Positions 1 through 56,852 of a stretch of DNA of 64,000 bases are shown one piece after another. Source of the stretch: Escherichia coli. Lineage in GTDB: Bacteria; Pseudomonadota; Gammaproteobacteria; Enterobacterales; Enterobacteriaceae. The first letter of the stretch is position 1. Every line of letters starts with the position of its first letter. Below the pieces are notes generated by a model. That model saw only the letters and a program-made list of their open reading frames with translations, was not told the origin of the DNA and did not search any database. A program made the position numbers and the translations under genes. The stretch lies in assembly GCF_003018255.1 (NCBI RefSeq), contig NZ_CP027440.1. One strand, written 5' to 3'.

Positions 1-52
1 TATAGAAAATCAGATACAACAAAAATGGCAGGTAGATGATGTGAAGATAAAT

Positions 53-126
53 TGGAGCGGGCGAAGGGAATCGAACCCTCGTATAGAGCTTGGGAAGCTC
101 TCGTTCTACCATTGAACTACGCCCGC
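53..126 (-). tRNA. glyU: tRNA-Gly (anticodon CCC)
   Basis: Reverse complement reads GCGGGCGTAGTTCAATGGTAGAACGAGAGCTTCCCAAGCTCTATACGAGGGTTCGATTCCCTTCGCCCGCTCCA: acceptor stem pairs, T-arm GGTTCGATTCC, anticodon loop CTTCCCAAG, encoded CCA. Confidence 0.9.
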
Positions 127-204
127 TTCGAGATGCGTAAGGCATTATAAACCTTACGCTCTCCTTAGCAAGTGCCGCGCTGCTGACTGCTGATTAATTC
201 GCCA

Positions 205-981
205 TCAGCATTTTGGCTTGCTGCCCTGAGGCGGCAAGTAACGTAGCGGATCAATTGCCGTTGCACGGTAACGAATCTGGAAATGCAGGCGAACCGATGC
301 CGCATCAGTGCTCCCCATAGTGGCGATTTTTTGCCCAGCCTTCACGCTTTGCCCATTATTTACCAGCATCGTGTCATTATGGGCGTAAGCCGTAATGTAA
401 TCTTCACTGTGTTTAATCATGATGAGATTACCGTAGCCACGCAGCTGGTTGCCCACATACACCACCTTTCCTGCACCCGCGGCGTAAATAGGTGTACCCC
501 GTGGAGCTGAGATATCAATCCCTTTATTGCCGCCATCAGCTGTCGAATACGGCATGATAACTTTCCCTGTCGTTGGCCATAACCAACAACGTTGCCCTAC
601 TGGCGGCCAGGAAGATTTCGGTACTGCTGATGACGGTGTAACCGATGCGGTTTTGGTCGTTGATTTGGCGGTTGATTTACGTGTACTACTATTTTTCGCC
701 CCACCCAGTTTTAGTTTCTGACCAACTTCAATGGTGTAAGGGGGGGAAATGCCGTTCAGTCGCGCCAGCTCTTTTACGCTAGTTCCCGTGGTGCGCGAAA
801 TACGATATAGCGTATCCCCCCGTTTCACGGTGTAAACGGAGCCGGAATACGTTCCTGTATCGGATGATTTGCTACCCGAGCAGCCCGCCAAAAGCAGTCC
901 AATCGATAACAACATCACGATACCCAGAGATTTTTTATTCAGGCGTCCCGCACTCAAAATCTTTCCTCGCTTAAAAAACAA
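205..981 (-). CDS. ygeR: LysM-domain / M23-peptidase family lipoprotein
   Basis: ORF 258 aa; lipobox LLAGCSG, LysM-like segment YTVKRGDTLYRISRTTG, C-terminal M23-like region; exact start uncertain (K-12 protein recalled as slightly shorter). Confidence 0.8.
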   Translation of the reverse strand: MFFKRGKILSAGRLNKKSLGIVMLLSIGLLLAGCSGSKSSDTGTYSGSVYTVKRGDTLYRISRTTGTSVKELARLNGISPPYTIEVGQKLKLGGAKNSSTRKSTAKSTTKTASVTPSSAVPKSSWPPVGQRCWLWPTTGKVIMPYSTADGGNKGIDISAPRGTPIYAAGAGKVVYVGNQLRGYGNLIMIKHSEDYITAYAHNDTMLVNNGQSVKAGQKIATMGSTDAASVRLHFQIRYRATAIDPLRYLPPQGSKPKC

Positions 982-7328: not shown

Positions 7329-8519
7329 ATGATGAAAACTGTTAATGAGCTGATTAAGGATATCAATTCGCTGACCTCTCACCTTCACGAGAAAGATTTT
7401 TTGTTAACGTGGGAACAGACGCCAGATGAACTGAAACAAGTACTGGACGTTGCCGCAGCATTAAAAGCACTGCGTGCTGAAAACATCTCAACCAAAGTCT
7501 TTAATAGTGGATTAGGTATTTCCGTATTCCGCGACAACTCCACCCGTACCCGCTTCTCTTATGCTTCCGCGCTTAACCTGCTCGGCCTTGCACAGCAAGA
7601 TCTCGACGAAGGCAAATCACAAATCGCTCACGGCGAAACCGTGCGTGAAACCGCCAATATGATCTCCTTCTGCGCCGACGCTATTGGTATTCGCGACGAT
7701 ATGTATCTGGGCGCAGGCAACGCCTATATGCGTGAAGTTGGCGCTGCACTTGATGACGGTTACAAGCAGGGTGTGCTGCCGCAACGTCCGGCTTTAGTGA
7801 ACCTGCAATGCGATATTGACCACCCGACTCAGTCAATGGCTGACCTGGCATGGTTACGTGAACACTTTGGTTCACTGGAAAACCTGAAAGGTAAAAAAAT
7901 CGCCATGACCTGGGCCTACTCCCCAAGCTATGGCAAACCGCTCTCTGTACCACAAGGCATCATCGGTCTGATGACTCGCTTCGGTATGGATGTCACCCTG
8001 GCCCATCCGGAAGGCTACGACCTGATCCCGGATGTCGTTGAAGTCGCTAAAAACAATGCTAAAGCCTCCGGCGGTAGCTTCCGTCAGGTCACCAGCATGG
8101 AAGAAGCCTTCAAAGACGCAGACATCGTTTATCCGAAGTCATGGGCACCTTACAAAGTGATGGAAGAGCGTACTGAATTGCTGCGTGCGAACGATCACGA
8201 AGGCTTAAAAGCACTGGAAAAACAGTGTCTGGCACAGAACGCGCAACACAAAGACTGGCATTGTACTGAAGAGATGATGGAACTGACCCGTGATGGCGAA
8301 GCCCTGTACATGCACTGCCTGCCAGCTGATATCAGCGGCGTATCCTGCAAAGAAGGTGAAGTGACTGAAGGCGTATTCGAAAAATACCGTATCGCTACCT
8401 ACAAAGAAGCCAGCTGGAAGCCTTATATCATCGCCGCGATGATCCTGTCCCGTAAATACGCCAAACCAGGTGCACTGCTCGAGCAACTGCTGAAAGAAGC
8501 GCAAGAACGCGTGAAATAA
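7329..8519 (+). CDS. ygeW: carbamoyltransferase (ornithine/aspartate transcarbamylase fold; recalled as oxamate carbamoyltransferase)
   Basis: 396 aa; carbamoyl-phosphate binding motif STRTR (NSTRTRFSYASA). Confidence 0.85.
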   Translation: MMKTVNELIKDINSLTSHLHEKDFLLTWEQTPDELKQVLDVAAALKALRAENISTKVFNSGLGISVFRDNSTRTRFSYASALNLLGLAQQDLDEGKSQIAHGETVRETANMISFCADAIGIRDDMYLGAGNAYMREVGAALDDGYKQGVLPQRPALVNLQCDIDHPTQSMADLAWLREHFGSLENLKGKKIAMTWAYSPSYGKPLSVPQGIIGLMTRFGMDVTLAHPEGYDLIPDVVEVAKNNAKASGGSFRQVTSMEEAFKDADIVYPKSWAPYKVMEERTELLRANDHEGLKALEKQCLAQNAQHKDWHCTEEMMELTRDGEALYMHCLPADISGVSCKEGEVTEGVFEKYRIATYKEASWKPYIIAAMILSRKYAKPGALLEQLLKEAQERVK

Positions 8520-11042: not shown

Positions 11043-11094
11043 TTACTCTTCACTTATTCCCCTCCGGTTCGCCGGAGGGTTTTTGGAGTTTGCT

Positions 11095-12480
11095 ATGCGC
11101 GTATTGATCAAAAACGGCACTGTCGTTAACGCAGATGGACAAGCCAAACAAGATTTGCTGATTGAGAGCGGGATTGTTCGCCAATTGGGCAGCAATATTT
11201 CGCCGCAGGTCCCGTATGAAGAAATTGATGCCACTGGCTGTTACGTTTTCCCTGGCGGCGTGGATGTCCATACGCATTTCAATATTGATGTCGGCATCGC
11301 GCGCAGTTGTGATGATTTTTTTACCGGTACCCGCGCAGCTGCGTGTGGCGGTACAACAACCATTATTGACCATATGGGATTTGGCCCGAATGGCTGCCGG
11401 TTACGCCATCAACTGGAAGTTTATCGCGGTTATGCCGCCCACAAAGCAGTCATCGACTACAGCTTTCACGGTGTCATTCAACATATCAATCACGCTATCC
11501 TCGACGAAATTCCGATGATGGTTGAGGAAGGACTGAGCAGTTTTAAACTCTATTTAACCTATCAATATAAACTCAACGATGATGAAGTGTTGCAGGCATT
11601 ACGCCGCTTGCATGAATCCGGCGCGCTGACCACCGTGCACCCGGAAAATGACGCAGCTATCGCCAGCAAGCGGGCGGAGTTTATCGCCGCAGGGTTAACC
11701 GCGCCGCGTTATCATGCCTTGAGTCGACCTCTGGAATGCGAAGCGGAAGCCATCGCCCGCATGATTAACCTGGCACAAATTGCCGGTAACGCCCCGCTCT
11801 ATATCGTGCACCTGTCTAACGGCTTAGGTCTGGATTATCTGCGTCTTGCCCGTGCGAATCACCAGCCAGTCTGGGTTGAAACCTGCCCACAATATCTCCT
11901 GTTGGACGAACGCAGTTACGATACAGAAGATGGCATGAAGTTCATTCTTAGCCCACCGCTGCGTAACGTACGCGAGCAGGACAAACTGTGGTGTGGCATC
12001 AGCGATGGTGCGATTGACGTGGTAGCGACCGATCACTGCACATTCTCGATGGCTCAACGCCTGCAAATTTCTAAAGGCGATTTCAGTCGCTGCCCAAATG
12101 GCTTACCCGGTGTGGAAAACCGCATGCAGTTACTGTTTTCCAGTGGCGTTATGACGGGACGTATAACACCGGAACGTTTTGTTGAATTAACCAGCGCGAT
12201 GCCCGCCAGGCTGTTTGGCCTGTGGCCGCAAAAAGGATTATTAGCGCCCGGTTCCGATGGCGACGTGGTGATTATCGACCCACGTCAGAGTCAACAAATT
12301 CAGCATCGCCATCTCCACGACAACGCCGACTACTCGCCATGGGAGGGTTTTACCTGTCAGGGCGCGATTGTCAGAACTTTATCCCGTGGTGAAACGATTT
12401 TCTGTGACGGCACCTTTACAGGCAAAGCCGGGCGAGGTCGTTTCCTGCGACGCAAACCGTTTGTCCCTCCCGTGCTCTAA
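11095..12480 (+). CDS. hyuA: cyclic amidohydrolase (D-hydantoinase/dihydropyrimidinase family)
   Basis: Track ORF 11083..12480; start trimmed to MRVLIKNG (461 aa); metal-binding HxH motif GGVDVHTHF. Confidence 0.85.
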   Translation: MRVLIKNGTVVNADGQAKQDLLIESGIVRQLGSNISPQVPYEEIDATGCYVFPGGVDVHTHFNIDVGIARSCDDFFTGTRAAACGGTTTIIDHMGFGPNGCRLRHQLEVYRGYAAHKAVIDYSFHGVIQHINHAILDEIPMMVEEGLSSFKLYLTYQYKLNDDEVLQALRRLHESGALTTVHPENDAAIASKRAEFIAAGLTAPRYHALSRPLECEAEAIARMINLAQIAGNAPLYIVHLSNGLGLDYLRLARANHQPVWVETCPQYLLLDERSYDTEDGMKFILSPPLRNVREQDKLWCGISDGAIDVVATDHCTFSMAQRLQISKGDFSRCPNGLPGVENRMQLLFSSGVMTGRITPERFVELTSAMPARLFGLWPQKGLLAPGSDGDVVIIDPRQSQQIQHRHLHDNADYSPWEGFTCQGAIVRTLSRGETIFCDGTFTGKAGRGRFLRRKPFVPPVL

Positions 12481-12527
12481 CCACTGCCAGGGATCTATAC
12501 ACAATCAAGAATGATGAGTGAGGAAAA

Positions 12528-13460
12528 ATGAGTAAGAAAATTGTTCTCGCCCTGGGCGGGAATGCGCTGGGCGATGACCTGGCCGGACAAATGAAAGCGG
12601 TAAAAATTACTTCTCAGGCAATTGTTGATTTAATTGCCCAGGGACATGAAGTTATCGTCACTCACGGTAACGGGCCACAGGTGGGCATGATTAACCAGGC
12701 CTTTGAAGCTGCCGCAAAAACTGAAGCGCACTCGCCAATGCTGCCGATGTCTGTCTGTGTTGCCTTAAGCCAGGGTTATATTGGTTACGATCTACAAAAC
12801 GCATTAAGAGAAGAACTGCTTTCTCGTGGCATTAATAAACCTGTAGCAACGCTGGTTACCCAGGTCGAAGTCGATGCTAACGACCCGGCATTCCTCAACC
12901 CGACCAAGCCGATCGGTTCGTTCTTTACCGAGCAGGAAGCAGAGCAACTGACAAAACAGGGTTACACTCTGAAAGAAGATGCTGGTCGCGGCTATCGCCG
13001 TGTTGTTGCCTCGCCGAAACCGGTTGATATTATTGAAAAAGAGACGGTAAAAGCGCTGGTAGAAGCAGGCCAGGTAGTGATCACCGTTGGCGGTGGTGGC
13101 ATTCCCGTTATTCGTGAAGGGAACCATCTGCGCGGTGCCAGTGCGGTTATCGATAAAGACTGGGCCAGCGCCCGTTTAGCAGAAATGATTGATGCCGATA
13201 TGCTGATCATTCTGACTGCGGTAGAAAAAGTGGCCATTAACTTCGGTAAAGAGAATGAACAGTGGCTCGATCGCCTGTCATTAAGTGATGCTGAACGCTT
13301 TATCGAAGAAGGTCATTTTGCGAAAGGTTCTATGCTGCCTAAAGTGGAAGCTGCCGCCTCGTTTGCTCGCTCTCGCGCAGGTCGTGAAGCACTGATTACC
13401 GTATTGAGCAAAGCGAAAGAAGGGATTGAAGGCAAAACCGGAACGGTGATTTGTCAGTAA
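12528..13460 (+). CDS. yqeA: carbamate kinase-like protein
   Basis: 310 aa; amino-acid kinase family N-terminus KIVLALGGNALG. Confidence 0.85.
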   Translation: MSKKIVLALGGNALGDDLAGQMKAVKITSQAIVDLIAQGHEVIVTHGNGPQVGMINQAFEAAAKTEAHSPMLPMSVCVALSQGYIGYDLQNALREELLSRGINKPVATLVTQVEVDANDPAFLNPTKPIGSFFTEQEAEQLTKQGYTLKEDAGRGYRRVVASPKPVDIIEKETVKALVEAGQVVITVGGGGIPVIREGNHLRGASAVIDKDWASARLAEMIDADMLIILTAVEKVAINFGKENEQWLDRLSLSDAERFIEEGHFAKGSMLPKVEAAASFARSRAGREALITVLSKAKEGIEGKTGTVICQ

Positions 13461-13466
13461 TTTAAA

Positions 13467-13497
13467 GGCCGGGTGGGTAATACCATCCGGCCATTTT
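13467..13497 (+). terminator. intrinsic terminator after yqeA
   Basis: GGCCGGGTGG-gtaata-CCATCCGGCC hairpin followed by ATTTTC. Confidence 0.5.
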
Positions 13498-13500
13498 CAT

Positions 13501-15126
13501 TTAAGCCACTTCCAGCACTTCTTTCGTCGCTTTAACGCCCTGATGCATCAACATCATTAACGCCTCAAGTACGCCGCCGCCAATCGCCCGGGCTTTATCA
13601 GAAACGCTGGTGAAATCAGCCGTTTCACCACGAGGATCGATATCACCAATTTTAAAACCACCGACCACTGCCAGTCCGTCGTTCAACAAGCCACGCACCA
13701 TCCCCGTCAACGGTGCTTTAATTTCATGCTCACCAATCCAGGCAATCACATCGCCCTCTTTCACCAGATCGCCTAATTTCACGTTGGATCGCATAATGCC
13801 TGCAGCAGGAGCACGGATCACCCGTCGGGTGGTATGCCCCATAATATTGCCAGGAACACCGGTATTCTCCTGCGCACAACCAGAGTAAATCACCTGACCG
13901 AGCCAGTGCCCGCGATTTGTTTCAATTACCGCATGACAATCCTTCCCTGCAGTAAAGCCCGGCCCAAGCGCGATTGTTACTGGTGCCATATCTGCCCGCG
14001 TCCCCAAATTCTGTTTCGCCAGAATAGCGTCCACCACGCAAAGCGGTTTCAGTTCATCAAGCAATGAACAGGCGGGATCTACTATCACAGGGATGAATCC
14101 GCATTCGGTAAGTTTCATCGCCTCCGCAGAGCTGGTTGCCAGGCGGGCGGTGACGCCTTCGACCGTCATTTCGCCATCGAACACGGCCTGGGCAAATGCC
14201 ACGGTACAACGAATCACTGTCGGTTTTTCCACTTCCAGCATGATCACTTTAAAACCCGCATGATACAGACGTAGCGCTACACCACTGGCGATATCCCCCG
14301 CACCACGAATCACCACCAGCTGGTGTCCGGAAGGATGAGAAGGCTTCATCATCAGCCCACCCGGCGCGTTATTTTTCACCTGTAATATTTCTGCCAGCAC
14401 GCTGATGGCGATCTCCTGCGGCGTTTCCGCACCTATGTTGTAACCAACGGGCGCATGTAAACGGGCAATATGTTCTTCAGCCACGCCTTTCTCACGCAAT
14501 TGGCGCAGGAAAAGCTGAACCTTGCGGCGACTTGCCAGCAACCCCAGCCATGCAATGGGTTGTTCAATGAGTTTGTCGAGGGCTTCACGATCCTGATTAT
14601 TCGTGGCAATCAGGACAAAATTATCAGGGCGAATATCCAGTGCTTCCACTGCCGCACCAAACGACTCAGCATGGAGAAGCGTGGTTGATGGTGGGAATAG
14701 TTCAGGATTGAGGCTTTCGCGATAAATATCGGCAACGGCGATATCAAATCCTAATAGCGCCGCACTCTGGGCTATCGCCCGGTTGACATGCCCCGCGCCA
14801 ATCAACACCAGACGTGGACGCATACCATGGACGCTGATAAATACTGACATTGCACCTCCACAATCTGACCCGACAGCATCCGCACCGTTACGAGCCATAC
14901 GTCCATGGAATAATCGCGGCTTACGTTCCTGCAATGCCTGAAGCGACTCTTCAATCACCTTCCGCTCAACCATTCCGCCACCAATTGTACCGACGATAGA
15001 GCCATCGGCGCGCACTAACATTTGTGCAGAATGGCGGGGGGTTGAGCCTCGGCTATCAACAATTTGCGCCATCGCAAACGGACAATTTTGCTCTTCGAGT
15101 TTTGCAGCCTCTGTGAAAATATTCAT
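13501..15126 (-). CDS. yqeB: XdhC/CoxI-family molybdenum-hydroxylase accessory protein
   Basis: 541 aa; Rossmann-like LVLIGAGHV; family recalled as selenium-dependent molybdenum hydroxylase system protein YqeB. Confidence 0.8.
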   Translation of the reverse strand: MNIFTEAAKLEEQNCPFAMAQIVDSRGSTPRHSAQMLVRADGSIVGTIGGGMVERKVIEESLQALQERKPRLFHGRMARNGADAVGSDCGGAMSVFISVHGMRPRLVLIGAGHVNRAIAQSAALLGFDIAVADIYRESLNPELFPPSTTLLHAESFGAAVEALDIRPDNFVLIATNNQDREALDKLIEQPIAWLGLLASRRKVQLFLRQLREKGVAEEHIARLHAPVGYNIGAETPQEIAISVLAEILQVKNNAPGGLMMKPSHPSGHQLVVIRGAGDIASGVALRLYHAGFKVIMLEVEKPTVIRCTVAFAQAVFDGEMTVEGVTARLATSSAEAMKLTECGFIPVIVDPACSLLDELKPLCVVDAILAKQNLGTRADMAPVTIALGPGFTAGKDCHAVIETNRGHWLGQVIYSGCAQENTGVPGNIMGHTTRRVIRAPAAGIMRSNVKLGDLVKEGDVIAWIGEHEIKAPLTGMVRGLLNDGLAVVGGFKIGDIDPRGETADFTSVSDKARAIGGGVLEALMMLMHQGVKATKEVLEVA

Positions 15127-15173
15127 ACCAACCTCAATGGATATCCTTTCAGTAACCCGGAATACCCGGGCCG

Positions 15174-15944
15174 CTAATTCACAAATCTGCGCGCGATTGC
15201 AGGATGTTCTTGTATATCGCCCAGCCAGATTGCCTCTACGTCGTGTTGTTGCAGCGGTTGAAGGAGCTCGCTTTGCGCAATCGCATTCTCACATTGAGAA
15301 AAACGGTTAATGAACCAGACTCGCCGACAACCTTGCGGTACGTTTTTAAACGCCCCCTGAGGGTGGCGAACCAGCGCAACGAGATCGCTCAGTTGCAAGG
15401 TTGCATCAGGTGTTAACCCGGTAATATCAGCAAACTGCGACCAGCGATGGACATTTTCTGTGCTCACTTTCGCACCCAAAATATGTCCTCCCATCACAGC
15501 AATCACGCAGCAACTGCTTTTAGGTATGCAAGGTTCGTGCTCATCAGGCGCTTTTAACGGCATTCCACGCGAGCCATCTGCCTCAATGAGAATTACGTCA
15601 CACTCTGATCGTTGTACCAGTGCATCAATCGCTTCTGGCGTAAATCCCTGCACTTTTCCCTGGTTCGCTTTCCAGCTGTGAAAACAAAATGAAATGGGGG
15701 ATATAAAAGACGCATGAGGAAGCATGGCGGGATCACGACAGAAAACCACGGGCCAGTGAGATGTTGGCATAAACATATGTGTCGTCGTAGTGATTAATAC
15801 ACGCCTGCCGCTCGCCTGGAACAGTTCTGCCAGCCAAAAAAGCAAGCTGGTTTTCCCCCCAGCACCAACAACAGAAATCACAGTGGGACGTTTCTGCGCG
15901 CCTAAATCAATGAATAATGCCGATGGGTCAATTATACTTTTCAC
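15174..15944 (-). CDS. yqeC: putative selenium-dependent molybdenum hydroxylase accessory protein (P-loop)
   Basis: 256 aa; P-loop-like VVGAGGKTSLLFWL. Confidence 0.75.
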   Translation of the reverse strand: MKSIIDPSALFIDLGAQKRPTVISVVGAGGKTSLLFWLAELFQASGRRVLITTTTHMFMPTSHWPVVFCRDPAMLPHASFISPISFCFHSWKANQGKVQGFTPEAIDALVQRSECDVILIEADGSRGMPLKAPDEHEPCIPKSSCCVIAVMGGHILGAKVSTENVHRWSQFADITGLTPDATLQLSDLVALVRHPQGAFKNVPQGCRRVWFINRFSQCENAIAQSELLQPLQQHDVEAIWLGDIQEHPAIARRFVN

Positions 15945-16047
15945 GCGTCTTTATGGACCTCTCTGGGATAAATTACCCTCAACTTAATCCATCAGGAAGT
16001 AACGCAATTATCAGGCGTTATTAGCTCCTGTAAATAATGGAATCACT

Positions 16048-16626
16048 ATGTCAGCCATCGACTGTATAATTACCGCCGCAGGATTATCATCAAGAATGGG
16101 GCAATGGAAAATGATGTTACCCTGGCAACAGGGAACAATTCTTGATACAAGTATCAAAAATGCGTTGCAGTTTTGTAGCCGAATTATTTTAGTCACCGGC
16201 TATCGTGGTAATGAACTGCACGAACGTTATGCGAACCAGAGCAATATCACTATTATCCACAACCCAGATTATGCGCAGGGTTTACTGACATCAGTAAAGG
16301 CCGCAGTACCCGCGGTGCAAACAGAACATTGTTTTCTCACCCACGGAGATATGCCAACCCTCACCATCGATATTTTTAGAAAAATCTGGTCGTTACGAAA
16401 TGATGGCGCAATACTGCCACTCCATAATGGCATCCCCGGCCATCCGATTTTAGTGTCAAAACCATGCCTGATGCAGGCAATCCAGCGACCCAATGTCACC
16501 AATATGCGTCAGGCACTCCTTATGGGAGAACATTATTCCGTCGAAATAGAAAATGCAGAAATAATTTTAGATATTGATACTCCTGACGACTTTATTACAG
16601 CGAAGAAAAGGTATACTGAAATTTAG
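16048..16626 (+). CDS. mocA: molybdenum cofactor cytidylyltransferase
   Basis: 192 aa; nucleotidyltransferase N-terminal motif ITAAGLSSRMG; divergent from yqeC. Confidence 0.85.
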   Translation: MSAIDCIITAAGLSSRMGQWKMMLPWQQGTILDTSIKNALQFCSRIILVTGYRGNELHERYANQSNITIIHNPDYAQGLLTSVKAAVPAVQTEHCFLTHGDMPTLTIDIFRKIWSLRNDGAILPLHNGIPGHPILVSKPCLMQAIQRPNVTNMRQALLMGEHYSVEIENAEIILDIDTPDDFITAKKRYTEI

Positions 16627-16677
16627 AAAACGTAGTTAAACGATTGCGTTCAAATATTTAATCCCTCCAGCACTCTT

Positions 16678-16692
16678 TATCATAATGATAAG
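16678..16692. promoter_or_regulatory. perfect 7-1-7 palindrome TTATCAT-A-ATGATAA upstream of ygfK
   Basis: Read directly from the sequence; further TGATAA/TTATCAC-type half-sites nearby (16723-16730 GTGATAAA). Confidence 0.3.
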
Positions 16693-16859
16693 GAATCACT
16701 GATTTTGAGAAAAGAGAAAAAGTGATAAATGGGCTGGCAATAATAATTTTCAGGAGTGATTTTAATTCTCATTTGGCACCTGTGAGTTCATTCACAAAAA
16801 GCCATTAAGTTTCGAGCCGCCTCACATTTTTTTATATTTCCCGCCAAACCTGGCAAGAG

Positions 16860-16875
16860 TGGTGCGATTGTTGCT
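16860..16875 (+). promoter_or_regulatory. candidate sigma-54 -24/-12 promoter upstream of ygfK
   Basis: TGGtgCGattgTTGCT: GG-N10-GC spacing with TTGC -12 element; about 75 nt upstream of the ygfK ATG. Confidence 0.35.
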
Positions 16876-16947
16876 CTATCCCCCTAAACCACCGGATTTC
16901 TCAACACCGGTCACTCAATGATATCTGTATAAGCTAAGGAGAGGGTT

Positions 16948-19900
16948 ATGGGGGATATTATGCGTCCCATTCCGTTTGAGGAACTTTTGACGCGCATATT
17001 TGATGAATACCAACAACAACGCTCAATCTTTGGTATTCCCGAGCAACAGTTTTACTCACCCGTAAAAGGTAAAACTGTTAGCGTCTTCGGTGAAACCTGT
17101 GCCACTCCCGTCGGCCCTGCCGCTGGCCCGCACACGCAGCTCGCGCAAAATATTGTCACTTCCTGGCTGACTGGCGGACGCTTCATCGAACTAAAAACCG
17201 TCCAAATTCTTGACCGCCTGGAGCTGGAAAAGCCCTGTATCGATGCCGAAGACGAGTGCTTTAACACCGAATGGTCTACCGAATTTACCCTGCTTAAAGC
17301 CTGGGATGAATACCTCAAAGCCTGGTTTGCCCTGCACCTTCTCGAAGCGATGTTCCAGCCTTCTGATTCCTGTAAATCGTTCATCTTTAATATGAGCGTC
17401 GGTTACAACCTCGAAGGTATTAAGCAACCGCCGATGCAGCAGTTCATCGACAATATGATGGACGCATCTGACCATCCGAAATTCGCTCAATACCGCGATG
17501 CACTTAATAAGCTACTCCAGGATGACGCATTTTTAGCCCGCCACGGCTTACAGGAAAAACGCGAAAGCTTGCAAGCCTTACCCGCTCGCATCCCCACCAG
17601 CATGGTACAAGGGGTTACCCTCTCCACCATGCACGGCTGTCCTCCGCATGAAATCGAAGCCATTTGCCGCTACATGCTGGAAGAAAAAGGGCTCAACACC
17701 TTTGTGAAACTCAACCCGACCTTACTGGGGTACGCGCGTGTTCGTGAGATCCTCGATGTCTGCGGTTTCGGTTACATCGGCTTAAAAGAAGAGTCATTTG
17801 ATCACGACCTCAAGCTGACGCAAGCACTGGAAATGCTGGAACGCCTGATGGCACTGGCAAAAGAAAAATCACTCGGCTTTGGCGTAAAACTGACTAACAC
17901 TCTCGGCACCATTAATAACAAAGGCGCACTGCCCGGTGAAGAGATGTATATGTCAGGCCGTGCGCTGTTCCCGCTCTCCATCAACGTTGCAGCAGTTCTC
18001 TCTCGCGCCTTTGACGGCAAACTGCCCATTTCTTATTCCGGTGGTGCCAGTCAGCTGACTATCCGCGATATTTTTGATACTGGTATTCGCCCTATTACTA
18101 TGGCAACCGACCTGCTGAAACCTGGCGGCTATCTGCGCTTAAGTGCCTGCATGCGCGAGCTGGAAGGCTCAGATGCCTGGGAGCTTAACCACGTTGACGT
18201 CGAACGACTGAACAGACTGGCAGCAGACGCGTTAACCATGGAATACACCCAGAAACACTGGAAGCCAGAAGAGCGTATTGAAGTGGCTGAAGACCTGCCG
18301 CTGACCGATTGCTACGTTGCCCCCTGTGTTACTGCCTGCGCTATCAAGCAAGATATTCCGGAATACATCCGTCTGCTTGGCGAACACCGCTATGCCGACG
18401 CGCTGGAACTCATCTATCAACGCAACGCCCTGCCCGCCATTACCGGTCATATTTGCGATCACCAGTGCCAATACAACTGTACCCGCCTGGATTACGACAG
18501 TGCGCTGAATATCCGCGAACTGAAAAAAGTCGCGCTGGAAAAAGGTTGGGATGAATATAAGCAACGCTGGCACAAACCAGCCGGTTCTGGTTCACGCCAT
18601 CCGGTTGCCGTGATTGGTGCAGGTCCGGCGGGTCTGGCAGCAGGTTACTTCCTTGCCAGAGCGGGCCATCCGGTTACGCTGTTTGAACGCGAAGCCAATG
18701 CGGGCGGCGTGGTGAAAAATATCATTCCTCAGTTCCGTATTCCTGCAGAGTTAATTCAGCACGATATCGATTTTGTTGCCGCTCACGGCGTAAAATTTGA
18801 GTATGGCTGCTCACCGGATCTGACCGTTGAACAGTTAAAAAATCAGGGCTTCCACTATGTTCTGATTGCCACCGGCACTGATAAAAATAGCGGTGTGAAA
18901 CTGGCGGGCGACAACCAAAATGTCTGGAAATCACTCCCCTTCCTGCGTGAATACAACAAGGGCACAGCGCTCAAGCTGGGCAAACATGTGGTCGTTGTCG
19001 GGGCGGGTAACACGGCAATGGACTGCGCTCGTGCGGCGTTACGCGTTCCAGGCGTAGAAAAAGCAACGGTCGTTTACCGTCGTTCACTGCAAGAGATGCC
19101 AGCATGGCGCGAAGAGTATGAAGAAGCGTTGCACGACGGCGTGGAGTTCCGTTTCCTGAATAATCCGGAACGTTTCGATGCTGATGGCACCTTAACCTTG
19201 CGCGTTATGTCGCTTGGCGAACCTGATGAGAAAGGTCGTCGCCGTCCGGTTGAAACCAACGAAACAGTAACACTGCATGTAGACAGCCTGATCACCGCCA
19301 TTGGTGAACAGCAGGATACTGAAGCCCTGAATGCGATGGGCGTGCCGCTGGACAAAAACGGCTGGCCAGACGTCGACCATAATGGCGAAACGCGTCTGAG
19401 TGACGTCTTTATGATCGGCGACGTACAGCGCGGACCATCCTCCATTGTCGCTGCTGTCGGAACCGCGCGTCGGGCGACCGATGCCATCCTGAGTCGGGAA
19501 AATATCCGTTCCCACCAGAACGATAAATACTGGAATAACGTCAATCCGGCGGAAATCTATCAACGTAAAGGCGATATCTCTGTCACTCTGGTGAACAGTG
19601 ACGATCGTGACGCGTTTGTCGCGCAGGAAGCCGCTCGCTGCCTTGAATGTAACTACGTTTGCAGCAAGTGTGTGGATGTCTGCCCGAACCGCGCCAACGT
19701 ATCCATTGCGGTCCCAGGCTTCCAGAACCGTTTCCAGACGCTGCATCTCGACGCCTACTGCAACGAATGCGGCAACTGCGCCCAATTCTGCCCGTGGAAC
19801 GGTAAACCGTACAAAGACAAAATCACCGTCTTCAGCCTGTCGCAAGACTTTGATAACAGCAGCAACCCAGGCTTCCTTGTGGAAGATTGCCGGGTACGCG

Positions 19901-20046
19901 TACGTCTGAATAACCAAAGCTGGGTGTTAAACATCGACAGCGAAGGTCAGTTCAACAACGTACCACCGGAGCTGAACGATATGTGCCGCATCATTAGCCA
20001 TGTCCACCAGCATCATCATTATCTGCTGGGCCGTGTGGAGGTGTAA
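16948..20046 (+). CDS. ygfK: large Fe-S flavoprotein oxidoreductase (glutamate synthase beta-like domain plus 4Fe-4S ferredoxin domains)
   Basis: 1032 aa; dinucleotide-binding [14 protein letters not shown]; Cys clusters CLECNYVCSKCVDVCP and CNECGNCAQFCP. Confidence 0.85.
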   Translation: MGDIMRPIPFEELLTRIFDEYQQQRSIFGIPEQQFYSPVKGKTVSVFGETCATPVGPAAGPHTQLAQNIVTSWLTGGRFIELKTVQILDRLELEKPCIDAEDECFNTEWSTEFTLLKAWDEYLKAWFALHLLEAMFQPSDSCKSFIFNMSVGYNLEGIKQPPMQQFIDNMMDASDHPKFAQYRDALNKLLQDDAFLARHGLQEKRESLQALPARIPTSMVQGVTLSTMHGCPPHEIEAICRYMLEEKGLNTFVKLNPTLLGYARVREILDVCGFGYIGLKEESFDHDLKLTQALEMLERLMALAKEKSLGFGVKLTNTLGTINNKGALPGEEMYMSGRALFPLSINVAAVLSRAFDGKLPISYSGGASQLTIRDIFDTGIRPITMATDLLKPGGYLRLSACMRELEGSDAWELNHVDVERLNRLAADALTMEYTQKHWKPEERIEVAEDLPLTDCYVAPCVTACAIKQDIPEYIRLLGEHRYADALELIYQRNALPAITGHICDHQCQYNCTRLDYDSALNIRELKKVALEKGWDEYKQRWHKPAGSGSRHPVAVIGAGPAGLAAGYFLARAGHPVTLFEREANAGGVVKNIIPQFRIPAELIQHDIDFVAAHGVKFEYGCSPDLTVEQLKNQGFHYVLIATGTDKNSGVKLAGDNQNVWKSLPFLREYNKGTALKLGKHVVVVGAGNTAMDCARAALRVPGVEKATVVYRRSLQEMPAWREEYEEALHDGVEFRFLNNPERFDADGTLTLRVMSLGEPDEKGRRRPVETNETVTLHVDSLITAIGEQQDTEALNAMGVPLDKNGWPDVDHNGETRLSDVFMIGDVQRGPSSIVAAVGTARRATDAILSRENIRSHQNDKYWNNVNPAEIYQRKGDISVTLVNSDDRDAFVAQEAARCLECNYVCSKCVDVCPNRANVSIAVPGFQNRFQTLHLDAYCNECGNCAQFCPWNGKPYKDKITVFSLSQDFDNSSNPGFLVEDCRVRVRLNNQSWVLNIDSEGQFNNVPPELNDMCRIISHVHQHHHYLLGRVEV

Positions 20047-20048
20047 TC

Positions 20049-21377
20049 ATGTTGATTCTGAAGAATGTCACCGCAGTGCAGTTACACCCAGCGAAAGTGC
20101 AGGAAGGCGTTGATATCGCCATCGAAAATGATGTGATTGTCGCTATCGGCGATGCCCTGACGCAACGCTACCCCGATGCCAGCTACAAAGAGATGCATGG
20201 TCGGATTGTGATGCCAGGAATTGTCTGCTCGCACAACCATTTTTACTCGGGGCTGTCCCGCGGAATTATGGCAAACATCGCCCCCTGCCCGGATTTCATC
20301 TCAACGCTGAAAAATCTCTGGTGGCGACTCGATCGCGCCCTTGATGAAGAGTCGCTCTATTACAGCGGACTGATTTGTTCCCTGGAAGCGATTAAGGGCG
20401 GATGTACATCGGTTATCGATCACCATGCCTCTCCGGCGTATATCGACGGGTCGCTCTCCACATTGCGCAACGCATTTTTAAAAGTTGGCCTGCGCGCGAT
20501 GACCTGTTTTGAAACTACTGACCGTAACAACGGTATCAAAGAGTTGCAGGAAGGTGTAGAAGAAAACATCCGCTTCGCCCGTCAGATTGATGATGCGAAG
20601 AAAGCGGCAACTGAACCGTATCTGGTAGAGGCTCATATTGGTGCTCACGCGCCGTTTACTGTGCCGGATGCCGGTCTGGAAATGCTGCGTGAGGCCGTGA
20701 AAGCCACAGGCCGTGGTTTACATATTCACGCTGCGGAAGACCTTTACGATGTTTCCCATAGTCATCACTGGTACGGCAAAGATCTGCTGGCACGATTAGC
20801 GCAATTCGATCTCATCGACAGCAAAACGCTGGTCGCTCATGGGCTTTATCTGTCTAAAGACGACATCGCGTTGCTCAATCAGCGTGATGCATTCCTGGTG
20901 CATAACGCCCGTTCAAACATGAACAACCATGTCGGCTACAACCATCATCTTTGCGACATCCGCAATCTGGCGTTGGGTACGGACGGTATTGGTTCAGATA
21001 TGTTTGAAGAGATGAAATTTGCCTTCTTTAAACATCGCGATGCGGGTGGTCCGCTGTGGCCTGACAGCTTTGCCAAAGCTCTGGCTAACGGCAACGAACT
21101 GATGAGCCGCAACTTTGGCGCGAAATTTGGCCTTCTGGAAGCCGGTTACAAAGCCGATTTAACCATTTGCGATTACAACTCGCCGACGCCGCTGCTGGCA
21201 GACAATATCGCCGGGCATATCGCTTTCGGTATGGGCTCAGGCAGCGTTCACAGCGTGATGGTCAATGGTGTGATGGTCTATGAAGACCGTCAGTTTAACT
21301 TCGATTGCGATTCCATTTATGCGCAAGCCAGAAAAGCCGCTGCCAGTATGTGGCGTCGGATGGATGCGCTGGCATAA
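20049..21377 (+). CDS. ssnA: amidohydrolase-superfamily aminohydrolase (chlorohydrolase-like)
   Basis: 442 aa; metal-binding HxH (CSHNHF); starts 3 nt after the ygfK stop. Confidence 0.85.
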   Translation: MLILKNVTAVQLHPAKVQEGVDIAIENDVIVAIGDALTQRYPDASYKEMHGRIVMPGIVCSHNHFYSGLSRGIMANIAPCPDFISTLKNLWWRLDRALDEESLYYSGLICSLEAIKGGCTSVIDHHASPAYIDGSLSTLRNAFLKVGLRAMTCFETTDRNNGIKELQEGVEENIRFARQIDDAKKAATEPYLVEAHIGAHAPFTVPDAGLEMLREAVKATGRGLHIHAAEDLYDVSHSHHWYGKDLLARLAQFDLIDSKTLVAHGLYLSKDDIALLNQRDAFLVHNARSNMNNHVGYNHHLCDIRNLALGTDGIGSDMFEEMKFAFFKHRDAGGPLWPDSFAKALANGNELMSRNFGAKFGLLEAGYKADLTICDYNSPTPLLADNIAGHIAFGMGSGSVHSVMVNGVMVYEDRQFNFDCDSIYAQARKAAASMWRRMDALA

Positions 21378-55847: not shown

Positions 55848-56031
55848 ATTTCTCTGAGATGTTCGCAAGCGGGCCAGTCCCCTGAGCCGATATTTCATAC
55901 CACAAGAATGTGGCGCTCCGCGGTTGGTGAGCATGCTCGGTCCGTCCGAGAAGCCTTAAAACTGCGACGACACATTCACCTTGAACCAAGGGTTCAAGGG
56001 TTACAGCCTGCGGCGGCATCTCGGAGATTCC
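55848..56031 (+). ncRNA. ssrS: 6S RNA (RNA polymerase sigma-70 holoenzyme regulator)
   Basis: Matches my recollection of E. coli 6S RNA from ATTTCTCTGAGATGTTCGCAAGCGGGCCAG... to ...CATCTCGGAGATTCCCT; lies between zapA and fau; 3' end approximate to a few nt. Confidence 0.85.
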
Positions 56032-56654: not shown

Positions 56655-56713
56655 GGGCGACACACCTGCATCGCCCTGATTGACATCGTTGATTCTTTAA
56701 CCTAATTTAGTGA

Positions 56714-56852
56714 GTAAGGGTAAGGGAGGATGACTCCTCCCCTGAGACTGACTGTTAATAAGCTGGGAAACTTATGAGTAACAGTACAATCAGTATGATG
56801 ACAAGTCGCATCATAACCCTTCTCCTTCAAGCCCTCGCTTCGGTGAGGGCTT
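56714..56852 (+). ncRNA. sibC: SibC antisense sRNA (type I antitoxin), approximate ends
   Basis: Fully overlaps ibsC on the opposite strand; candidate -35 TTGACA (56680-56685) and -10 TAATTT (56702-56707); 3' hairpin GCCCTC-gcttcggtg-AGGGCTTT at 56829-56852; length about 139 nt fits Sib RNAs. Confidence 0.55.
56754..56813 (-). CDS. ibsC: Ibs-family type I toxin, 19-aa hydrophobic peptide
   Basis: Minus-strand ORF ATGATGCGACTTGTCATCATACTGATTGTACTGTTACTCATAAGTTTCCCAGCTTATTAA = MMRLVIILIVLLLISFPAY; below the ORF-track size cutoff. Confidence 0.7.

Follow-up and report, generated by a model that had tools for sequence, protein, structure and literature searches.

The glyU locus at the left edge of the window (the whole 64-kb stretch of Escherichia coli DNA analysed here) is best read as an empty island site: attB is unoccupied, the nearby slot for the ETT2 type III secretion island appears to be empty in the window's lineage, and yqeG would most likely lie approximately 316 bp from glyU, a combined reading to which we assign a probability of about 0.9 on the strength of sequence comparison. 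The locus is an island site of two unrelated kinds, namely ETT2, which lies adjacent to the tRNA gene, and integrase-bearing elements.

ARAGORN detects a single tRNA gene in the window, a minus-strand tRNA-Gly (anticodon CCC) that occupies 53-126. The Rfam tRNA model RF00005 covers 56-126 on the same strand with 71.6 bits (E=1e-13; gathering score 29), and the gene matches K-12 glyU (b2864) at 74 of 74 nucleotides, all of which bears out the original prediction that the tRNA is a minus-strand glyU with its 3' end toward the left edge. The CCA 3' end falls at position 53 and, given the strand of the gene, faces that edge, and the right-hand side holds actS (ygeR), xdhABC and ygeV in the K-12 order. 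Among 80 Enterobacteriaceae loci, located through ActS in a single genome of each species, glyU lies directly downstream of actS in 78. The glyU gene examined here is an ordinary single-copy E. coli tRNA gene. Upstream of it, a promoter-like site with 10 of 12 consensus matches, located at 20171-20144 of a relative's locus (L001) and corresponding to window 171-144, may act as the glyU promoter, as its match to the consensus suggests. Further into the window, Rfam identifies full-length 6S RNA (ssrS) and Sib antitoxin RNA at 55848-56031 and 56680-56830, both of them expected core features of this chromosomal region. The features at the left edge are as follows.

1-52, no strand assigned: native sequence 3' of glyU, forming the 52 nt nearest the tRNA within a 142-nt A+T-rich segment, assigned by identity to empty-site genomes.
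53-75, minus strand: putative attB core, the 3'-terminal 17-23 nt of glyU, duplicated on insertion of integrase-bearing elements, assigned from repeats in occupied genomes.
53-126, minus strand: glyU, tRNA-Gly(CCC) with an encoded CCA end, assigned by ARAGORN, Rfam RF00005 and identity to K-12 b2864.
144-171, minus strand: promoter-like site upstream of glyU (TTGCTA, 16 nt, TATAAT), from a consensus scan.
205-957, minus strand: actS (ygeR), which is conserved as the gene upstream of glyU, from the annotation of an identical sequence.

The 52 bp to the left of the tRNA are A+T-rich, as had been noted at the outset, with 71.2% A+T versus 48.6% across the window, a richness reached by just 0.9% of all 52-nt segments. 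They belong to the 142-nt A+T-rich segment that lies between glyU and the ETT2 slot, and they are 100% identical, with 0 mismatches, to the flanks of five empty-site complete genomes. Because the 142-nt flank is common to ETT2-carrying and ETT2-free genomes, positions 1-52 are not island DNA, and by this comparison the A+T-rich stretch is the native flank of the tRNA gene. No structured glyU terminator was found in the A+T-rich flank, where the RNA of the minus strand folds less stably than shuffled sequences do (z = +1.9), and a terminator scan of a relative's spacer returned only the plus-strand terminator of yqeG. The latter is a strong intrinsic terminator with a 16-bp stem 3' of yqeG (L001 19747-19781), which in relatives falls approximately 255-220 nt leftward of position 1 of the window, within the 174 nt of the spacer nearest yqeG.

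That tRNA 3' ends serve as integration targets, as the original prediction had it, is evident at glyU from integrases and 17-23-nt repeats in other E. coli and in other Enterobacteriaceae. A tyrosine recombinase gene is found approximately 60-300 nt beyond the glyU 3' end in 15 of the 78 species loci; the integrase ORFs at glyU fall into P4-type (about 400 aa), 520-540-aa (approximate) and 650-aa classes, with eight confirmed by Pfam, and five of the integrase loci, in Klebsiella, Citrobacter, Kosakonia and Enterobacter, have a perfect second copy of the 3'-terminal 17-23 nt of glyU 5.4-9.1 kb away. Within E. coli, a 60-nt junction probe retrieved genomes in which the native flank adjoins an additional, incomplete copy of glyU. 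The element at glyU in strain 104 is 6.4 kb long and encodes a 543-aa integrase, whose gene abuts the tRNA, together with DUF4145 and Rha genes, and its far side is marked by an exact repeat of 17 nt, TGGAGCGGGCGAAGGGA (23 nt if 2 mismatches are allowed), beyond which come the native flank and yqeG; 124 E. coli genomes contain 80% or more of the element. Strain 2014C-3338 has a 13.4-kb P4-like satellite at glyU, with an 18-nt repeat that has one deleted base and genes for a 404-aa P4-type integrase (Arm-DNA-bind_3, Phage_int_M and Phage_integrase domains), an AlpA-type regulator, an Icd-like protein, a DUF927 primase, SSB, ProQ, PerC and Q, and its integrase-plus-junction sequence recurs in 81 genomes. 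Each of the two element types, 6.4-kb and 13.4-kb P4-like, is carried by approximately 1.5-2.3% of E. coli genomes. In Salmonella Typhi, glyU likewise harbours a 6.5-kb island, known as SPI-15 (PMC7143636).

In all occupied examples examined, island DNA begins right at the tRNA 3' end, with the integrase gene approximately 60-300 nt off, and in strains 104 and 2014C-3338 the segment that matches the window flank is found at the far side of the integrated element. In the window the native flank still abuts the tRNA and the attB core is present once, and the tRNA attachment site of this genome is therefore shown to be unoccupied, as read from the window's own sequence. The alternative, in which an SPI-15-like or P4-like integrase-bearing island sits at glyU and runs leftward out of the window, draws on the use of glyU by such elements in E. 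coli and on the polymorphic occupancy of the site, with some genomes that are 99.8% identical to the window over 10.9 kb carrying a P4-like element. We nevertheless consider it extremely unlikely, as occupied sites have island DNA at the tRNA 3' end whereas the window has native flank without a single mismatch, and as positions 1-52 differ from the island-side flank of P4-like elements at 36-38 of 52 positions and are also unlike the island-side flank of the strain 104 element. An element using the tRNA 3' end is contradicted by the window sequence; an insertion further left in the spacer, for example of an IS, is possible.

Several further observations concern the diversity of elements at this attachment site. 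P4-like satellites are found at glyU in L093 and L095-L098 (approximately 11070-20750), genomes that encode an ActS identical to that of the window, and in L099 (1170-14578). The satellite cargo varies and includes a DUF927 or D5-type primase, Phage_ASH, AntA/Rha, ProQ, PerC and antiterminator Q. In strain PV0838 (L087 1632-29189), a degraded ETT2 lies beside an integrase element of the strain 104 type that measures 9.1 kb and is interrupted by ISCro1, and yqeG is followed by ETT2, native flank, partial tRNA repeat, integrase element and glyU; since this strain carries both, with the native 142-nt flank and the repeat between them, the two slots are independent. A 36-nt match to the native flank plus the glyU 3' end resides on the colicin-type plasmid pEC26-3 (NZ_CP060882.1; L088 4001-4036), where it adjoins IS1 copies and a DUF6998 gene, and the junction probe matched 58 plasmid places in all. 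In E. coli SCPM-O-B-8794 (L009 6121 onward), the sequence just past glyU matches neither the native flank nor ETT2.

The second slot is defined by the spacer between yqeG and glyU, which is present as a whole, at 316 bp, in 1217 of 5426 complete E. coli genomes (22%). In the remaining genomes the spacer is interrupted at 174/175, which places the ETT2 slot 142 nt from the tRNA and, in window coordinates, approximately 90 nt leftward of position 1, and ETT2 is found between yqeG and glyU in approximately 78% of complete genomes. In O157:H7 TW14359, the ETT2 island spans 27.5 kb with 35.8% G+C and starts 142 nt from glyU. K-12 holds an 11.9-kb ETT2 remnant (yqeH to ygeQ) and an IS2 between yqeG and glyU, so that the remnant that the original prediction placed beyond the glyU 3' end in K-12 is indeed there. 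The position of ETT2 beside glyU is documented, as is the lack of any ETT2 elements in phylogroup B2/ST131 (PMC3977695, PMC7058095), and E. albertii is reported to carry an intact ETT2 at glyU (PMC4700944).

The ETT2 island of O157 has neither an annotated integrase nor a copy of the tRNA 3' end, and the classic marks of a tRNA island, namely insertion in the tRNA 3' end, an integrase and direct repeats, are absent from ETT2. Border repeats were considered, and both the repeat search and the junction alignment gave only chance-level A+T-rich matches at otherwise clean junctions. By these comparisons ETT2 is tRNA-adjacent and not demonstrably tRNA-integrated. In K-12-like genomes approximately 78 bp of the glyU flank are deleted and approximately 10 nt of the window's 52-nt flank are left; the region of flank loss is visible in the comparison of window 1-43 with K-12 (L002 33970-33985). 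An AAGATAA repeat was entertained as the border of this 78-bp deletion and dropped, as its end points do not fit. Likewise, we rejected the 52-nt flank haplotype as a marker for ETT2, as 2318 genomes match the 60-nt probe at 99% identity or more, which exceeds the 1217 with an empty slot.

A separate ETT2-free configuration is seen in the cryptic-clade Escherichia sp. MOD1-EC7003, in which yqeG lies 289 bp from glyU and the junction is unlike the empty allele of E. coli (L006 10909-11025, compared with L005 1776-1822 and 29368-29437). This strain keeps 47 bp of the ETT2 left end and is without approximately 72 nt of the glyU-proximal flank. The retained 47 bp imply that its seemingly empty allele arose by a separate deletion of ETT2, and the end points, which differ from those of the E. 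coli empty allele, indicate that the deletion was an independent one.

For the DNA to the left of position 1, we turned to the nearest relatives of the window as proxies, comparing its first 3 kb and first 25 kb by megablast with the 5426 complete E. coli genomes. Four complete genomes match the 3-kb query at 100% identity; over the first 25 kb the best matches, JNE23-011 and JNE112863, reach 99.6%, and only 6 of the 5426 genomes are at least 99% identical. On this sampling, the window's strain is a member of a sparsely sampled lineage. Positions 1-126 occur exactly in five complete genomes (JNE120442, JNE23-011, JNE112863, 21F61 and DETEC-S792), and in all five the core permease gene yqeG stops 316-317 bp short of glyU, with no annotated feature in the interval, and is followed by yqeF, kduI, kduD and araE. 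Neither ETT2 genes (eiv/epa/epr, ygeH and others) nor an integrase are found between yqeG and glyU in any of the five; O157 and K-12, the controls for ETT2 gene presence, were both positive. Furthermore, no second copy of the glyU 3' 16-mer, with up to 3 mismatches allowed, is present in 43 kb of JNE120442, and none of the glyU 3' end in the 35-43-kb stretches of JNE120442, O157 and K-12, in a repeat search whose controls were positive in strains 104 and 2014C-3338 and in five other species.

These results bear directly on the original prediction, which held that the window begins at a known island integration site, that any island would lie outside its left edge, and that a leftward extension should be searched for integrase genes and a direct repeat of the glyU 3' end. 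Whereas glyU is a known hotspot, an island to the left of this particular window finds no support, with yqeG 316-317 bp off in five relatives, and the extension by proxy yielded no integrase in these genomes and no glyU 3' repeat in the 43 kb of JNE120442. What the five nearest complete genomes present is core genome upstream of the site with no tRNA-derived repeat, the very state that the prediction had named as speaking against it.

We also drew on draft and complete genomes that encode an ActS identical to that of the window, retrieved by exact-protein match. The closest of them differ from the window at 20 or more positions in 10.9 kb (99.8% identity), and two empty-site types (L090 and L091) have yqeG adjoining glyU. 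None of the proteins encoded up to 10 kb from glyU is unique to the window, as most of the differences from these relatives form a cluster of synonymous SNPs in ygeW. There, 18 substitutions with 0 protein changes are concentrated at window 7679-8072 relative to the closest relatives, with hardly any difference elsewhere in the 10.9 kb, and the cluster looks like a short recombination patch. Since such patches occur in the region, neighbouring genomes are imperfect proxies for the source genome.

It is against this background that the presence of ETT2, or of a K-12-like remnant, just outside the window and starting approximately 90 nt to the left of position 1 has to be weighed. K-12 and O157 carry ETT2 at precisely that position, and the 142-nt flank that includes the window's 52 nt is common to both states, so that the window alone cannot exclude the island. 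However, the five complete genomes with the exact 126-nt sequence are all without ETT2, the L090 and L091 types with identical ActS have yqeG beside glyU, and the window flank differs from that of O157 at several aligned positions while being identical to the ETT2-free flank. We therefore regard a nearby ETT2 as very unlikely. The ETT2 slot of the source genome is almost certainly empty as well, judging from all close relatives, and the DNA to the left of position 1 presumably matches theirs.

We propose the following model for the locus. Transcription of glyU would run leftward from the sigma-70-like promoter suggested by the consensus match at 171-144, and the last 17-23 nt of the gene serve as attB for several families of tyrosine-recombinase elements. 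Integration restores the tRNA gene, brings island DNA into direct contact with its 3' end and relocates the native flank, together with an incomplete copy of the tRNA, to the element's other end. Independently of attB, a slot at 142 nt from the tRNA holds ETT2, a type III secretion island, in the majority of E. coli; in the window's lineage this slot would be empty, with yqeG predicted to begin approximately 265 bp to the left of position 1.

Compared with known systems, the window shares with the K-12 glyU locus the tRNA, its orientation and the right-hand neighbours actS/ygeR, xdhABC and ygeV, but K-12 differs in its 11.9-kb ETT2 remnant with IS2 and its flank deletion of approximately 78 bp, neither of which is found in the window's lineage. 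The yqeG-glyU spacer of 316 bp without ETT2 in the window's relatives corresponds to the ETT2-free B2/ST131 layout, a likeness of locus layout alone and not a phylogroup assignment of the window's strain. SPI-15 of Salmonella Typhi and the 6.4-kb element of strain 104, which we liken to each other by size and tRNA target only, share their tRNA target with the window, which contains the sequence duplicated in these insertions; the window differs in having the unoccupied target alone, with no integrase or repeat. The P4-like satellite found at glyU in 2014C-3338 and in close relatives of the window's strain is absent from the window, whose flank is native.

Nothing in the locus is new, as its biology is already known, and the practical outcome of finding both slots empty is that a false island call at the window edge is avoided, with little import beyond correct annotation. 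The accompanying survey, on the other hand, distinguishes two cases often treated in the literature as a single "island at glyU": ETT2, 142 nt off and with neither integrase nor repeat, and true site-specific elements, which duplicate the last 17-23 nt of the tRNA gene. As strain PV0838 demonstrates, ETT2 and a site-specific element can coexist in one genome. A more speculative thought, which we hold to be rather doubtful on the junction sequences at hand, is that the ETT2-free allele of the window's lineage might represent an ancestral, never-occupied site and not a deletion scar. If so, ETT2 would have entered 142 nt from glyU by an integrase-free route and been spread or replaced via recombination in the flanks, and junction alleles could then serve to order the gain and loss of ETT2 across the genus.
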